A DNA stretch of 64,000 nucleotides from Minisyncoccota bacterium (GTDB lineage Bacteria > Patescibacteriota > Minisyncoccia > Phycocordibacterales > Phycocordibacteraceae), in assembly GCA_018062765.1 (NCBI GenBank), contig JAGORR010000001.1, forward strand, positions 506,485 to 570,484, given 5' to 3'. The notes below the pieces were generated by a model. That model saw only the letters and a list, made by a program, of their open reading frames with translations, searched no databases and was not told the origin of the DNA. Below are positions 12,209 through 16,941 of the stretch, in pieces. How positions within the stretch are numbered: the stretch's first letter is position 1; each line of letters starts with the position of its first letter. Both the position numbers and the translations under genes were made by a program.

Positions 12209-12811
12209 ATGTTCAAGATTATGGCGGAGTTTACGGAGGGATTCGATCTTTTGACTAAGTACGGACTTGCAGCGACCTTCTTCGGAACGGCTCGGTCCTC
12301 TTTCGATAGTGCCGTCTATAACGATGCCACCGAACTTGCGCAAAGACTTGCAAAGCGCGGTTTTGCCGTCATCACAGGCGGCGCCTCGGGCGTCATGAAG
12401 GCGGCAAATAAAGGCGCGCACGATGCGGGCGGCGCGTCCGTGGGCCTTAACATCGAGCTCGAGCACTCGGAAGGCGAGAATGGATTTTTGACGGACCACA
12501 TTCTGTTCAATCATTTCTTCGTTCGCAAGGTCATGCTGACCTACGCATCTGAGGTATATATCTACTTCCCAGGAGGATTCGGCACGCTGGATGAATTCTT
12601 CGAGATAGTGACGTTGGTTCAGACGGGAAAGATTAAACCCGTTCCTATCGTCCTCTATAATAAGGAGTACTGGACTCCGCTTATCTCGTTTTTTGAGACA
12701 CAGCTCCGGGACAAGTATCACGCGATTGACCCACTCGATATGGATCTTTTCCATCTAACCGACACCGTAGACGAAGCATTTGAGTATATTGTTGCCAATG
12801 TGAAGTGTTAG
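12209..12811 (+). CDS. LOG family (TIGR00730) protein
   Basis: GGGxGxM and PGGFGTLDE motifs; about 200 aa from MFKIMAEF; an in-frame start further upstream is possible. Confidence 0.7.
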   Translation: MFKIMAEFTEGFDLLTKYGLAATFFGTARSSFDSAVYNDATELAQRLAKRGFAVITGGASGVMKAANKGAHDAGGASVGLNIELEHSEGENGFLTDHILFNHFFVRKVMLTYASEVYIYFPGGFGTLDEFFEIVTLVQTGKIKPVPIVLYNKEYWTPLISFFETQLRDKYHAIDPLDMDLFHLTDTVDEAFEYIVANVKC

Positions 12812-12837
12812 TGCCAGTCCCAACCTAACGCGTGTCA

Positions 12838-12872
12838 AAGCCCCGCCAATTATTGGCGGGGCTTTCTCGCTC
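12838..12872. terminator. bidirectional terminator
   Basis: aaagccccgccaat-ta-ttggcggggcttt. Confidence 0.7.
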
Positions 12873-12886
12873 GGGCGCGTATGTCG

Positions 12887-13156
12887 TCAGCGCACACCGC
12901 GCTGAAAGGCGTCATAGGCATGCGCCGGCATGGTTTTCTCGGTGCTCTCGAGTGCGCGGTAGTGCGCGGTCACGTAGTCCGGAATCGTCGCACGCAGACG
13001 ATACCCATTCGTGTCGTCCGTGAATTGCTTCCCGGTGCGCCGCTCCTTCCGGGTCTGAACCCAAATGGATTCAAACAGCGCATAGTGCGTGCACTTGCGC
13101 TTCGCCACATCCTCCTCGATTCGCTCGCGTACTGTCTTCGCCACGTAATCCTCCAT
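12887..13156 (-). CDS. hypothetical protein
   Basis: 89 aa from MEDYVAKTV...; AGGAG SD 10 nt upstream; no recognised domain. Confidence 0.45.
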   Translation of the reverse strand: MEDYVAKTVRERIEEDVAKRKCTHYALFESIWVQTRKERRTGKQFTDDTNGYRLRATIPDYVTAHYRALESTEKTMPAHAYDAFQRGVR

Positions 13157-13227
13157 CGCTATCGAACTCCTGTTTGGGAGTTTACTCCTAGCCGCCGTGC
13201 TGTGAAGGGGAGCGAATGGACAAGATA

Positions 13228-13262
13228 AAACCCCCGGCCGTAAGACCGGGGGTTGCCAGCGA
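13228..13262 (-). terminator. rho-independent terminator of the histidine-phosphatase gene
   Basis: minus-strand cccccggtc-ttacg-gccggggg hairpin then ttttatcttg. Confidence 0.6.
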
Positions 13263-13369
13263 CATCCCGTCACGGGAAGGCCCTCATGGGCAGCTGCAGG
13301 AATGACCTTGTGGGACATTCGCTTCGCCGACGCCAAGAATGTGCCATAGGCGTGTACGCCTGTAAAGCA

Positions 13370-13816
13370 CTAGACGCGCTCGAAGGTCTTCGTGGCGCAA
13401 TCGATGATGACCGCCTGACCTTTATCGATGCTTCCGACCTGGAACCGTGTCTGAAGCTCGTTCTTCCCGAAGTACGACGGGAACTCATCGCAATACTCCT
13501 GATGGGTCACGATGAGGAGCGTATCGACGTCTGCACCGCGATCCTTCACAAGCTTGAGCGCTGCAGGCATGTCGGGGTCCTGCGCCGCATCAGACCGCAA
13601 CAGCGCGTACTGCTCGGGCTCGCTATTGCTCACCAGCGAAAGTATCCCGGCCGACTCAACCGCTCGCTTTGCGGTCGACGTAAGGATGCGAAGCCGACCA
13701 AGTTCACGCAGACATAGCTCGCGCGTGAGCATCTCTATCTTCTCGGTACCAGAGGCCGAAAGGCCCAAGGTGGCCGTATCATAATCGCCGTGGCGCACGA
13801 TGATGAGGTATTTCAT
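13370..13816 (-). CDS. histidine phosphatase family protein (SixA-like)
   Basis: IIVRHGDY (RHG catalytic motif) near the N-terminus; 148 aa. Confidence 0.7.
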   Translation of the reverse strand: MKYLIIVRHGDYDTATLGLSASGTEKIEMLTRELCLRELGRLRILTSTAKRAVESAGILSLVSNSEPEQYALLRSDAAQDPDMPAALKLVKDRGADVDTLLIVTHQEYCDEFPSYFGKNELQTRFQVGSIDKGQAVIIDCATKTFERV

Positions 13817-13935
13817 TTGATTTCTCCAGGAACAAGTTCGAAGGCACTATGCTTTAACTCGCACAGTTTGTGAAGGGCAGATATGTCTTAAAAGGAGAGC
13901 TCCACGTACACAGTCATGGATGCTATGCTGGCCTC

Positions 13936-14322
13936 ATGTCCGTAAATCTCAAAATTTTGCAAGGTCAGGACGAACTAATTGCTAGCGAATCCTTCCTCGT
14001 AATCGAAGACAATCCGGTGGATGTAAAGTTATCTGCTGATGATGGTCCACCACTCGAGTTGCGTTTTCTGTTTGACGAAAAGGATGAAAAAAAGAATGAC
14101 GGTGCACCTGTTACTGAGGTTAAGGATGAGATTCTTACTGTTCAATTAGGACATGTTCCCGATGGCGGGAATGCAAAGCCCTGGGCAATTGGCACAAACG
14201 ATAAGGGAGACGAGGAGATAGTCATGCTCATCAATGTGCAGAGACAAGACCCTTCCGGATCTGTCAGAATCTTGATGGTGACATTCTACAAGAGGAAGCG
14301 CCTAAGTCCTCTAAATGCTTAG
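13936..14322 (+). CDS. hypothetical protein (AT-richer island gene A)
   Basis: 129 aa from MSVNLKIL (alternative GTG 13870); composition differs from flanking genes; no recognised domain. Confidence 0.5.
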   Translation: MSVNLKILQGQDELIASESFLVIEDNPVDVKLSADDGPPLELRFLFDEKDEKKNDGAPVTEVKDEILTVQLGHVPDGGNAKPWAIGTNDKGDEEIVMLINVQRQDPSGSVRILMVTFYKRKRLSPLNA

Positions 14323-14324
14323 GT

Positions 14325-14591
14325 ATGGCAAAGCCTCTATTACCGCACGGAGTTAGACGAGAGAGTAATTGGCAAACTCAAGCCGATAAAACTATAAACA
14401 CCGTTATGCTAATCGTCCGTGCGGGACTTTGGACACTGTTTATCGTTTTCATCTGTCTTCTAGCTTACCTAATTGGATACTACGTGTATCACGGCGATGT
14501 CGACGGGATTAAATCAATCTTATTCAATGGCATGTCAGGTCTTATCGGATTCCTACTCAGCCAGATTAAATTGAACGTAAAAGGGAAGTGA
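14325..14591 (+). CDS. hypothetical 2-TM small membrane protein (island gene B)
   Basis: 88 aa; start 2 nt after the gene A stop (coupled); two hydrophobic helices. Confidence 0.5.
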   Translation: MAKPLLPHGVRRESNWQTQADKTINTVMLIVRAGLWTLFIVFICLLAYLIGYYVYHGDVDGIKSILFNGMSGLIGFLLSQIKLNVKGK

Positions 14592-15140
14592 CATCCCCAA
14601 TTTTGACCGAAATCCGACTTCCCCGGGTCCGGTCGATTTTCGACCAAAGTGCCACTAGGAGAGACTCAGGCAGGCCTATCGACGCGAGTTCTGATACCTA
14701 ATACGAATTGAGAATTCAACGCGCGCGATTCTAGAGCCTCGTATGGGGCAGGGTATGGGCAGAGGGAAGTCCCCCGGCTTACGCTATATGAGTGTCGCAC
14801 AATATATCTTTTGCGACTCTTCCTCCTAGGAAGGGTTGTAAAAGATACGGCGCACATCTACGACGTGCCTTGGCCCCAAGTACGTCATAGATGTGCTTTT
14901 GCGACCGGTTCTGTGGGTAGTCGTAGGCACTTCTCTCTATACCCGGACCGAGAATCGTCAAACGAGATTTAAAATGGCCCACTTCCTAGGCTAGGGGACT
15001 ACTCCCCTCCCCTACAATCTCGGATACCCGAGATTTATGAAGCGAACGTCGCAAATTGGAAATACACTCAGGTATACTCTAACCGTTCGGTTGGATCGGT
15101 CGTGATTACCCCTCCTGCCGATATCGTTCGACTAACTTAA
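14592..15140 (+). ncRNA. candidate large structured noncoding RNA or long structured 3' UTR (unclassified)
   Basis: about 550 nt with no ORF over 67 aa on either strand; several hairpins (14794-14817, 14852-14896, 14994-15010, 15017-15034); repeated cttttgcgac and cctagg motifs; ends in a strong plus-strand terminator. Confidence 0.3.
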
Positions 15141-15191
15141 GCCTGCAGCCCCGGACGTCGCAGACGTCTTGCGCCTGCAGGCTCTTTTTTA
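15141..15191 (+). terminator. strong rho-independent terminator
   Basis: gcctgcag...(inner gacgtc-gca-gacgtc)...ctgcaggc compound hairpin followed by tctttttt. Confidence 0.85.
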
Positions 15192-15437
15192 TACTTCGCC
15201 GTCTAGGTGCCTCGTAAAGTGCTTCTTAATCGTGTTGTCGAGCGCCTTTGAGAAATCAATAGCGTGCTTTGGGGAAAGGACGACTTCGGCAACGAGCTGG
15301 CCGTTGGTTGCTGCTGGTCGCAGGTACGCGAACTGAATAATTACTGAGTCGTCGGAAACGGTGACTTGCGTCGCATTCGAAAACGATGGCGCAGCGCCTG
15401 CGGGCATCGGAATGGTGATGGTTTTCTTTAGAGCCAT
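15189..15437 (-). CDS. DUF3467-like small protein
   Basis: 82 aa; FSNATQVTVSDDSVIIQF...VVLSPKHAIDFSKALDNTIKKH pattern resembles DUF3467. Confidence 0.55.
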   Translation of the reverse strand: MALKKTITIPMPAGAAPSFSNATQVTVSDDSVIIQFAYLRPAATNGQLVAEVVLSPKHAIDFSKALDNTIKKHFTRHLDGEV

Positions 15438-15447
15438 AGAAATCGTC

Positions 15448-15660
15448 TTAGGTGAATATACGAACGACCCATTCTAAGATGCCGCCGAGGAAATGAAATA
15501 TGAAGGCGATGCCGGCCTTTAGAAACCCGAGGACATAGTCGATATTCTCCTGACCGGCAGGAGACTCGACCACGGCCTGTATCGAGATGCCGAAAAAAGA
15601 CATAACGAGGACTGCAATAGCCGTCCACATGAGGATGCGAATCATGAACGTATTATACAA
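15448..15660 (-). CDS. small 2-TM membrane protein
   Basis: 70 aa; two hydrophobic helices; in an operon with the M23 peptidase. Confidence 0.5.
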   Translation of the reverse strand: MYNTFMIRILMWTAIAVLVMSFFGISIQAVVESPAGQENIDYVLGFLKAGIAFIFHFLGGILEWVVRIFT

Positions 15661-15678
15661 CTTTCCAACCTCCCTGCC

Positions 15679-16941
15679 TTACAGGTACGACATCGGGTCG
15701 AGATAGGCGTTAGGCGCCGCGATAGGAATAGTCACGGTGTATCCGCTCTTGCAGGTGTACTGCCTGAAATTAACGGCATCCGCGTAGTAGACGGTGAAGT
15801 GGAGATGGGGTCCGGTCGCGTATCCGGTCATTCCCGCGTAGCCAATGACAGCGCCCGTGCCGACCGCATCTCCCTTCTCGACCGATACGGTTGAAAGGTG
15901 CGCGTAGAGAGTCGCAAGTCCGTTGGCGTGCTTTATGAGAACCCACTTACCGTACTGACAGTTCTGCACAGCGCCGAGATTAATCTCCATGACCGTACCG
16001 GAAAGTGATGCGTAGATTGGCGTCCCAGTCTGCGCGCGCAAATCGATGCCATCGTGGTACCCAGATGTATAGAGACGTCCCGAGTCCGAGGTCTTACCGA
16101 AATTCTGAGTAATAAACGCGTCAGCGACTGGCCAACGAAGCACGCCCTTGCCCGCAACCGGCACCGTGTCTGGATTGATAATGTACTGCAGCTTAGAAGA
16201 AAGGTCGTATAGCGCGTCCTGGAAGGACGCCGCCTCCGCTCGCTTATCAGCGAGGAGCTTCTGATACTGCGCCTCCTCTGCCTGCGTTTGCGTAAGGAGC
16301 TGCGCCTTGCCCTGCCGATTCACATCAAGCGCTTGTTTCTGGCTTGAGAGCTCCTGATTGCTCGCCGAGAGTCCTACACGCGTGTCAGCAACGGCTTCGT
16401 GCTGATCGTGAAGAGCAACCTTAGCCTCGGAGAGCGCAAGCGTATGACTGCGGAGCGTCTCCGAGAGCGCGGCGAGCTGATCGATGGAGGTCCAGGCATC
16501 ACTGAAGTCGCGCGAGCCGACAAGCCGCTCGACTATAGAGTAGTCATCCTCGACCGCCATGGCGCGAAGGGACGCAGCGAGAGCCGCCTGGTCAACAGCG
16601 ATTGACTTCTCCTTATCACTAATCTCAAGCGCGAGCTCATCGAGACGCAGGTTCGCTGCAGATATTTTCTGCTGAATTGACTTGATCTGCGCAGATGTCT
16701 TGCTGCGCGAAACATCAAGGGTCTGTATCGCTGATTGCAAAGTTTGCTTGTTGCCGGAGATGGTCTGCAGTTGTTTCTCGTAGGTGCGAATCTCTTCATC
16801 GAGCTTGGCACGCTCTTCGTTAATCGATTCAATTTGCTCGCGTATCTCTTCAACGGTATCGGCCTGCGTCGCAACCGGAAGGAGACTCGCTACAGAGAGC
16901 AGGGCAATAAGAAGTATGAAAATGCGGCCAAGAACGTTCAT
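15679..16941 (-). CDS. M23 family metallopeptidase with N-terminal coiled coil (EnvC-like)
   Basis: signal peptide; long coiled coil; C-terminal HxxxD...HLHF M23 motifs (GYHDGIDL, GPHLHFTV). Confidence 0.8.
   Translation of the reverse strand: MNVLGRIFILLIALLSVASLLPVATQADTVEEIREQIESINEERAKLDEEIRTYEKQLQTISGNKQTLQSAIQTLDVSRSKTSAQIKSIQQKISAANLRLDELALEISDKEKSIAVDQAALAASLRAMAVEDDYSIVERLVGSRDFSDAWTSIDQLAALSETLRSHTLALSEAKVALHDQHEAVADTRVGLSASNQELSSQKQALDVNRQGKAQLLTQTQAEEAQYQKLLADKRAEAASFQDALYDLSSKLQYIINPDTVPVAGKGVLRWPVADAFITQNFGKTSDSGRLYTSGYHDGIDLRAQTGTPIYASLSGTVMEINLGAVQNCQYGKWVLIKHANGLATLYAHLSTVSVEKGDAVGTGAVIGYAGMTGYATGPHLHFTVYYADAVNFRQYTCKSGYTVTIPIAAPNAYLDPMSYL

Follow-up and report, generated by a model that had tools for sequence, protein, structure and literature searches.

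A foreign two-gene cassette beside a candidate dif site in a Minisyncoccota genome

Our analysis of 64,000 nucleotides from a Minisyncoccota bacterium (Patescibacteriota; contig JAGORR010000001.1 of assembly GCA_018062765.1, positions 506,485 to 570,484; the whole stretch is called the window below) revealed a cassette of two open reading frames (ORFs), ORF1 and ORF2, that is foreign DNA, was recently acquired and is located in a hot spot of the replication terminus, close to a candidate chromosomal dif (Xer) site. The account that we regard as fairly probable as a whole is that a foreign segment of about 0.8 kb, carrying a conserved operon for a DUF6864 protein and a helical-hairpin protein, lies left of dif, that the noncoding region on the right of the cassette consists of dif and repeats, and that the cassette would have arrived through this hot spot and would work by docking of its soluble product on its membrane product. 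The cassette and its leader are arranged as follows (positions are those of the window).

13936..14322, plus strand: ORF1, a cytosolic all-beta protein of 128 amino acids (aa) and a divergent DUF6864 member (ATG start; Pfam PF21732; AlphaFold2)
14325..14591, plus strand: ORF2, a small membrane protein of 88 aa that starts 2 nt past the ORF1 stop (hydropathy, charge, AlphaFold2)
13817..13935, no strand: low-GC leader in the intergenic stretch that separates ORF1 from the divergent left gene (GC 0.46; folding not in excess, z about +0.4; nothing dif-like above background)

The leader forms the left edge of the foreign segment, presumably with the promoter inside it.

A foreign two-gene segment

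An earlier note on this stretch, made from the sequence alone, had described an AT-richer segment of foreign DNA at this position, and the windowed GC and tetranucleotide analysis that it proposed bears this out, since GC, GC at third codon positions (GC3) and tetranucleotide usage are all outliers against the flanks. ORF1 and ORF2 together have a GC content of 0.438, where the window averages 0.564 (z = -4.6); only 0.02% of equal-sized windows are this low, and the 19 lowest-GC windows of 650 nt all fall at 13.5-14.5 kb. GC3 is 0.45 in both ORFs and ranges from 0.547 to 0.788 in the 27 other genes of the window. In tetranucleotide distance the two ORFs rank first among 633 windows (z = 4.3). 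The drop in GC extends over approximately 13,820-14,600 (about 0.8 kb), and the noncoding DNA beyond it (14592-15188) is close to the host norm with a GC of 0.52 (z = -1.5).

For comparison we used the loci around gltX in species-representative genomes, among them 12 relatives with GltX proteins 56-69% identical. The order murG-gltX-M23 is kept in all 12, a small membrane protein and DUF3467 in most of them, and LOG-RNaseT on the far side in several. ORF1, ORF2 and the two genes to their left are missing from all 12, which keep the flanking genes. The stretch from DUF3467 to LOG is variable: it is essentially empty in L013, where only about 580 nt separate LOG from the 28-bp candidate dif site, holds secreted proteins in L016, and holds DUF3800 proteins and others in L012 and L006. 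We conclude that the segment is of foreign origin because its composition is an outlier and because it is absent from relatives that keep murG-gltX-M23-DUF3467 and LOG-RNaseT, which is the test that the earlier note itself had set. The att-like direct repeats that it had suggested looking for were sought as well, and only short pairs at chance level border the low-GC segment.

ORF1 and ORF2 as a conserved pair

Two ORFs are found as the earlier note had described them, except that the length of 129 aa given for ORF1 becomes 128 aa when counted from the ATG. The protein is acidic (isoelectric point, pI, 4.6). It had been said to lack a recognisable domain, which does not hold for ORF1: it scores 27.9 bits against Pfam DUF6864 (PF21732), whose gathering threshold is 27, over model positions 4-113 of 114. 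Membership of DUF6864 appears borderline on this score. An exhaustive phmmer search of 1.84 billion representative proteins returned two relatives only, P0003 and P0004, with 36-39% identity; against DUF6864 they score 23.1 bits, under the cut-off of 27, and 29.5 bits, respectively. ORF1 thus resembles the family in aligning over nearly the whole 114-position model, and differs in that the scores of its group lie at the gathering threshold, as in a divergent branch, and in having a membrane partner of about 90 aa that is outside any family model. DUF6864 has no described function and was not mentioned in the literature searched.

Wider searches added no members. Word-indexed searches with ORF1, ORF2 and a three-sequence ORF1 profile found nothing beyond the query and the two known relatives. 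The ORF1 profile had no match in genome, metagenome and viral contigs, the ORF2 profile none in viral contigs, and tblastn none in phage and plasmid collections. In a profile search of all ORFs of approximately 225 loci, the one match to the ORF2 profile was an unrelated small membrane protein downstream of M23. The AlphaFold2 model of ORF1 is all-beta with eight strands (mean predicted local distance difference test, pLDDT, 73.6). Its single significant fold match is an uncharacterised protein of a metagenomic siphovirus (template modelling score 0.77, E = 1e-6), and neither a sequence match nor a Foldseek fold match was found in the PDB.

ORF2 is basic (pI 9.7). Its N-terminal tail, likewise basic, leads into a strong transmembrane helix, and after a short H-G-D turn comes a second hydrophobic helix, the weaker of the two. 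The description of ORF2 as a two-transmembrane protein agrees with the AlphaFold2 model, a helical hairpin of residues 12-56 and 59-86 (pLDDT 81), but only the first hydrophobic segment passes the standard hydropathy threshold. A fold search of BFVD with ORF2 gave no match. Two gene-calling pipelines annotate ORF2 as 61 aa from an internal Met, and NCBI as 88 aa; the 88-aa form is supported because the N-terminal 27 residues are conserved in two homologues.

The two ORFs lie on the same strand with the junction TAG-gt-ATG, so that the proposed translational coupling over a 2-nt gap is found as described, and the pair recurs in two relatives. In L003 and L004, both metagenomic contigs of about 1 kb, a DUF6864 relative is followed, 4 nt past its stop, by an ORF for a membrane protein of 92 or 90 aa. 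These ORF2 equivalents begin with 'MA' and share the layout of ORF2: a basic N-tail leads into a strong hydrophobic helix with an aromatic/His cluster at its end, which is followed, after a short acidic turn, by another hydrophobic helix that is weaker. GC in the L003 module is 0.40-0.41 compared with 0.48-0.49 in its flanks. In L004 the two values are 0.40 and 0.30, which is below the 5′ flank (0.49) only, the 3′ flank being lower still (0.29). Because both known ORF1 relatives have a similar membrane protein of about 90 aa 4 nt downstream, ORF1-ORF2 is, as judged from these sequences, a real module that is conserved as a pair across three contexts. The observation that neither ORF has a canonical Shine-Dalgarno motif is correct, but it does not set them apart, since only 6 of 30 window genes have a Shine-Dalgarno-like motif upstream. 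This suggests that initiation in this genome is largely independent of such motifs.

A candidate dif site at the replication terminus

The defining and predicting properties of dif sites, and of IMEXs, the integrative mobile elements that exploit Xer (PMC5357621, PMC9765430) and are discussed further below, were taken from PMC5357621, PMC3025954 and PMC9765430. Right of the cassette we identified a 28-bp sequence with most of these properties.

14792-14819, plus strand: candidate chromosomal dif (Xer) site with two inverted arms and a 6-bp centre, GTGTCGCACAA-TATATC-TTTTGCGACTC

The arms and centre read GTCGCACAA-TATATC-TTTTGCGAC, and the arms form an almost perfect palindrome (GTCGCAcAA / GTCGCAaAA), a hint that a single recombinase may be at work. 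This corresponds to the layout of dif sites, with partially palindromic arms of about 9-11 bp and a centre of 6-8 bp. The site is single in the window, with a position weight matrix (PWM) score of 40 against 9 for the next-best sequence. It is found in eight of the loci around gltX (L006, L012, L013, L016, L017, L018, L021 and L025), in the same orientation relative to gltX and in none of them with the cassette. A scan for the exact pattern picked it up in more than 120 metagenome contigs and in 22 IMG/VR contigs, with one copy per stretch throughout these more than 140 site-bearing contigs, duplicates of the IMEX type aside. Many of the site-bearing metagenome contigs are 0.3-0.9 Mb long, in the range of genomes of the candidate phyla radiation (CPR). 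The consensus of 137 copies is RYGTCGCACAATATATCTTTTRCGACAT, and 67 of 142 site-bearing loci (L086-L227) have murG, gltX, M23, LOG or RNaseT as neighbours.

The site also lies where a terminus would be expected from the GC-skew shift and from the convergence of motifs of the type of FtsK-orienting polar sequences (KOPS). Cumulative GC skew climbs to a plateau at 14-17 kb and falls steadily over the next 47 kb, and long genes converge there. The motif GGGNAGGG, the KOPS consensus of Escherichia coli, occurs seven times on the plus and once on the minus strand left of the site, and zero and nine times right of it (Fisher p = 4e-4). For RGGGAAG ([AG]GGGAAG) the counts are 8 plus and 2 minus on the left, 1 plus and 25 minus on the right (p = 1e-5), and AGGGAAG is found in the 49 kb right of the site 17 times on the minus strand and never on the plus strand. 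The nearest polar motifs, at 14746 (plus) and 15012 (minus), bracket the site. The same flip was seen in approximately 140 other contigs oriented by the site, where the pooled plus and minus counts for RGGGAAG are 169 and 27 on the left and 13 and 124 on the right, and those for GGGNAGGG are 89 and 8 on the left and 3 and 51 on the right. Of 45 other site-bearing loci, 35 have the higher GC skew on the left side. We therefore propose GGGNAGGG and RGGGAAG as candidate FtsK-orienting (KOPS-like) motifs of this lineage.

We read the site as dif-type because four independent lines point to it, namely the turn in GC skew, the flip of polar motifs in the window, the same flip in other contigs, and the junctions of mobile elements described below. 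On these sequence-based grounds the 28-bp site is a candidate for the chromosomal dif of a large group of CPR/Patescibacteria. It was not reported in the literature searched. Compared with known dif/Xer sites (E. coli XerCD-dif and the XerH, XerS, XerA and XerL variants), the site in the window shares the inverted arms, the AT-rich centre of 6 bp, the single copy as far as the 64-kb window shows, the position at the GC-skew turn between converging G-rich polar motifs that include the E. coli KOPS consensus, and the hijacking by integrating elements that leaves one full and one hybrid site (PMC5357621, PMC3025954). It differs in having no significant similarity to the dif sites of E. coli, Bacillus subtilis or Frankia; resemblance to E. 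coli dif (16-19 of 28 positions) had been considered as evidence and was dropped, being at chance level in the window. That the site might be a promoter, or that an RNA might have its 5′ end there, was likewise considered and dropped, given the layout of palindromic arms plus centre, the single copy and the flip in polarity.

Possible function of the cassette

In the mechanism that we propose, the acidic ORF1 would dock on the membrane hairpin of ORF2, at its basic N-tail in the cytoplasm, and would thereby gate or control an activity at the membrane. This activity would most plausibly be of the phage or superinfection exclusion, abortive-infection or addiction type that is typical of the morons of mobile elements. 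Among described proteins, ORF2 may be compared with class II holins and superinfection-exclusion proteins, which are small two-helix membrane effectors of phages. It resembles them in its size of about 90 aa, its helical hairpin and its basic termini, which are consistent with an N-in/C-in topology. It differs in that it has no sequence or fold match and that its second helix is weakly hydrophobic, and the cassette has no adjacent endolysin.

A related possibility, which the earlier note had raised and which we hold to be unlikely but worth keeping in view, is that the cassette is a self-contained toxin-antitoxin, abortive-infection or phage-defence pair, with ORF2 as membrane-disrupting effector and ORF1 as cytosolic sensor or neutraliser, and that it lies near dif only since accessory genes gather at the terminus. 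A small coupled pair of a soluble and a membrane protein on foreign DNA fits this, as does the conserved pairing, and the fold of ORF1 is seen again in a phage or prophage protein. Furthermore, a DUF3800 protein at the equivalent position of L012 (L012:7226-10400) matches the PADLOC candidate PDC-M04A (E = 6e-22), which hints, if weakly, that defence-like cargo gathers at this spot; the DUF3800 segment of L006 (L006:13465-16057) has dif at one end and a hybrid site at the other. Against a defence pair, neither protein had a match in PADLOC (E up to 1), PHROG or NCBIfam, and no defence genes adjoin the cassette in the window. The ORF1 family is also extremely rare, with three members among the 1.84 billion representatives in a single-sequence search, which is too few for statistics on co-occurrence with defence genes.

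Mobile elements at the site and the arrival of the cassette

Eight loci (L098, L100, L103, L105, L106, L107, L179 and L006) carry a second direct copy of the site 2.2-5.9 kb to the left, in which left arm and centre are conserved and the right arm is divergent, that is, a hybrid site. In L098 the interval between the copies encodes a replication protein of the G2P rolling-circle type and a homologue (57% identity) of a Zot-family ATPase, and in L088 and L094 Zot and typical small inovirus membrane proteins adjoin the site. Five site-bearing IMG/VR loci (L098, L100, L103, L105 and L106) contain a murG homologue. From their gene content and setting, the inovirus-like elements at the site (L098, L100, L103, L105, L106 and L107 of IMG/VR, and L179, L088 and L094) look like filamentous prophages of CPR-type hosts, and the combination of site and hybrid copy around them is, as far as sequence can tell, the signature of a dif exploited by mobile elements of the IMEX type.

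The cassette lies 200 nt left of dif, which is the side of all IMEX-type insertions found. It may have arrived as cargo or remnant of a dif-targeting element that exploits Xer, or by recombination in the terminus hot spot; arrival via the dif-proximal hot spot, possibly as such cargo or remnant, is in our opinion the most likely history of the cassette. In L003 a half-site of centre plus right arm is found 137 nt upstream of the ORF1 relative (score 21.3, with the 99.99th percentile at 9.1). The same contig has three RGGGAAG motifs, of which one precedes the pair and two follow it; each is on the plus strand, which is also the case in the window.

Several results weigh against the account proposed here. 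The cassette is missing from 142 further contigs that carry the 28-bp site and was thus never seen beside the site there. A strain of the same species without the cassette was sought and none was found, all informative contigs carrying it, so that no presence/absence polymorphism was observed. At 12,800-14,790 there is no further full site or half-site that scores above background, and 200 nt of host-like DNA lie between cassette and dif, so that an Xer-mediated arrival is no more than a possibility. None of the ten window ORFs of 250-400 aa is a Xer tyrosine recombinase. The 15-19 of 28 identities of the site with dif of E. coli or B. subtilis amount to chance, 27 other 28-mers of the window reaching at least 16 to E. 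coli dif. The skew of polar motifs is partly confounded by gene-strand bias, other G-rich words being skewed too. On the side of function there are the empty searches of PADLOC, PHROG and NCBIfam, and the only fold match of ORF1 is an uncharacterised protein and so says nothing direct. A degenerate site at about 13,859 (CTCGCACAGTTTGTG) that has 7 bases in common with the left arm was also considered; it fails the PWM thresholds and was dropped. Because of the missing second site, the host-like 200 nt and the absence of the cassette from all 142 other site loci, we do not class the cassette as an IMEX or as a pdif-type module.

IMEXs include CTX-phi, VGJ-phi, TLC-phi, the gonococcal genetic island and Legionella LME-1. 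The cassette resembles IMEXs in lying on the side of dif that is used by inovirus-like elements and by the DUF3800 cassette in relatives, and in having no integrase of its own (PMC5357621, PMC9765430). It differs in having neither a second dif-like site, and hence no boundary of dif plus hybrid site as in the elements of L006, L098, L100, L103, L105-L107 and L179, nor replication or morphogenesis genes: the low-GC segment holds only ORF1 and ORF2, without a match to a phage family. At most it would be a remnant or cargo of such an element. The pdif/xrs cassettes of Acinetobacter are small modules of adaptive genes flanked by Xer sites, often inverted (PMC11705084). The likeness here is that of a small adaptive module of one or two genes near Xer-type sites, and the upstream half-site of L003 is oriented opposite to the downstream site of the window. 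The difference is that the Acinetobacter cassettes reside on plasmids with two recognisable sites, whereas here the setting is chromosomal with one site per contig and never both.

The presence of inovirus-like elements with Zot, G2P Rep and small transmembrane proteins on the same side of the same site in related hosts also raises the possibility that the cassette is a decayed remnant of a filamentous-phage-like IMEX once located at dif, whose surviving genes could be, for instance, ORF1 as a small beta protein with a DNA-binding or accessory role and ORF2 as a coat or morphogenesis membrane protein. Such phages have a small soluble protein followed by a run of small membrane proteins, the C-terminal half of ORF2 (hydrophobic helix and basic tail) is coat-protein-like in layout only, and a dif-like half-site stands beside the L003 module. 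We nevertheless consider this improbable. ORF1 and ORF2 profile searches of the 22 IMG/VR contigs and of other loci were empty, the window lacks Zot, Rep, adsorption genes and a hybrid site, and the fold of ORF1 is unlike solved single-stranded-DNA-binding proteins of phages. Moreover, the same two genes, and only these, occur together in three contexts, which argues for a self-contained unit. As a slightly bolder and more speculative extension of the account that we favour, ORF1-ORF2 could be an Xer-mobilised 'dif cassette' that moves among CPR terminus regions via dif-like half-sites and protects its host from the filamentous phages that use the same integration site, for instance through a block on their entry or assembly at the membrane; we regard this as a long shot.

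Neighbouring genes

Left of the cassette, on the minus strand, are genes for proteins of 89 aa (12887-13156) and 148 aa (13370-13816), both with host-like GC (GC3 0.73-0.74). The 148-aa protein, which had been called SixA-like, does resemble histidine phosphatases, but weakly and below the cut-off (E = 0.004). The two genes may be older acquisitions or fast-evolving orphans of the same variable segment. Right of the cassette there are about 600 nt without credible ORFs, followed by the convergent genes for DUF3467, a small membrane protein, the M23 peptidase, gltX and murG. M23 peptidase, small membrane protein (about 65-70 aa) and DUF3467 (15189-16941, minus strand) form a conserved string downstream of gltX across the lineage, which in many contigs ends near dif.

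Since the 148-aa and 89-aa genes are absent from relatives and yet have host-like GC, this stretch contains lineage-specific genes in any case. ORF1 and ORF2 might accordingly be native, fast-evolving, lineage-specific genes whose odd composition results from amino-acid content or expression level without horizontal transfer, and their presence in all same-species contigs would agree with that (the exact ORF1 sequence is also found in NCBI assembly GCA_017991435.1). We give this little credence: GC3, a measure at synonymous positions, is lower in both ORFs than in each of the 27 other genes, their tetranucleotide usage is the most deviant of the window, and their homologues in two unrelated contexts have a similarly low GC (0.30-0.41).

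The noncoding region right of the cassette

The region between ORF2 and the DUF3467 operon contains, besides dif itself, the following features.

14592..14791, plus strand: host-like spacer from cassette to dif (GC near host norm; unstructured, z = +0.4)
14805..14905, no strand: inverted repeats abutting dif (two hairpins and a copy of the right arm) that carry the excess folding energy
15005..15012, minus strand: first minus-strand GGGNAGGG right of dif, pointing back to dif (motif position)
15141..15190, no strand: GC-rich hairpin GCCTGCAG...CTGCAGGC with a T run behind it (z = -4.8 plus, -5.6 minus)

The earlier note had seen an adjacent structured noncoding region here. Excess folding is indeed real, with z = -6.8 for the plus strand of 14592-15195 against shuffled sequences and -5.3 for the other strand. 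Only two parts account for it, however, namely 14790-14910 (z = -7.8) and the terminator at 15135-15195, and the 200 nt that adjoin ORF2 are unstructured. The plus-strand G-rich polar motifs of this spacer, AGGGAAG at 14763 and GGGCAGGG at 14746, point to dif; a third AGGGAAG is found at 14582, over the last codons of ORF2 and just upstream of the spacer.

In the repeats, a first hairpin (14805-14824/14828-14847) pairs the centre and right arm of dif with an inverted partial copy, and the corresponding half-site at 14833-14860 (minus strand) scores 14, with the 99.99th percentile at 9. A second hairpin has arms of 22 nt (14852-14873/14875-14896), and the right arm TTTTGCGAC recurs in direct orientation at 14897-14905. 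Past Xer events may have left these repeats as scars, or they may serve as accessory binding sites. Inverted half-sites similar to those of the window are also present right of the site in L135 and L203. The hairpin at 15141-15190 is likely a bidirectional terminator, serving plus-strand transcription and the convergent DUF3467 operon. Motifs of the type GGGAAGT/ACTTCCC cluster around dif at 14583-14623, 14764-14780 and 14978-14986, and likewise in the dif flanks of L012, L013, L016 and L003. They are sometimes arranged as inverted pairs (e.g. GGGGAAGTGGTC in relatives); most fit the polar pattern and some are opposite to it.

What appeared as a structured RNA beside the cassette is thus the candidate dif with repeats, G-rich motifs and a terminator, and not an RNA partner. 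The proposed three-part system, in which the 600 nt downstream would encode a structured RNA working with both proteins, fits the strong excess folding on the plus strand and the plus-strand terminator at the end of the region, but we consider it very improbable because the region has no match to an Rfam family, excess structure occurs only in the 120 nt around dif and in the terminator, with none next to ORF2, both strands fold about equally as expected of inverted repeats in DNA, the only noncoding piece conserved in relatives is the site of about 28 nt, which is present in genomes without the cassette, and the sequence downstream of the L003 ORF2 has, as judged by eye only, no obvious similarity to the region.

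Significance

The cassette, a rare accessory module, is of modest interest unless a phenotype can be demonstrated. More useful are the results for a large group of Patescibacteria/CPR, namely the candidate dif, the replication terminus thereby located, and GGGNAGGG and RGGGAAG as KOPS-like motifs, together with the filamentous-phage-like elements that have classic IMEX junctions at this candidate dif. With such a site, the terminus and replichore structure could be marked in fragmentary CPR genome bins, and inovirus-like contigs could be assigned to CPR hosts by matching their attachment (att) sites. The dif-proximal segment would also be a place in which to seek recently acquired cargo in the reduced genomes of the CPR.

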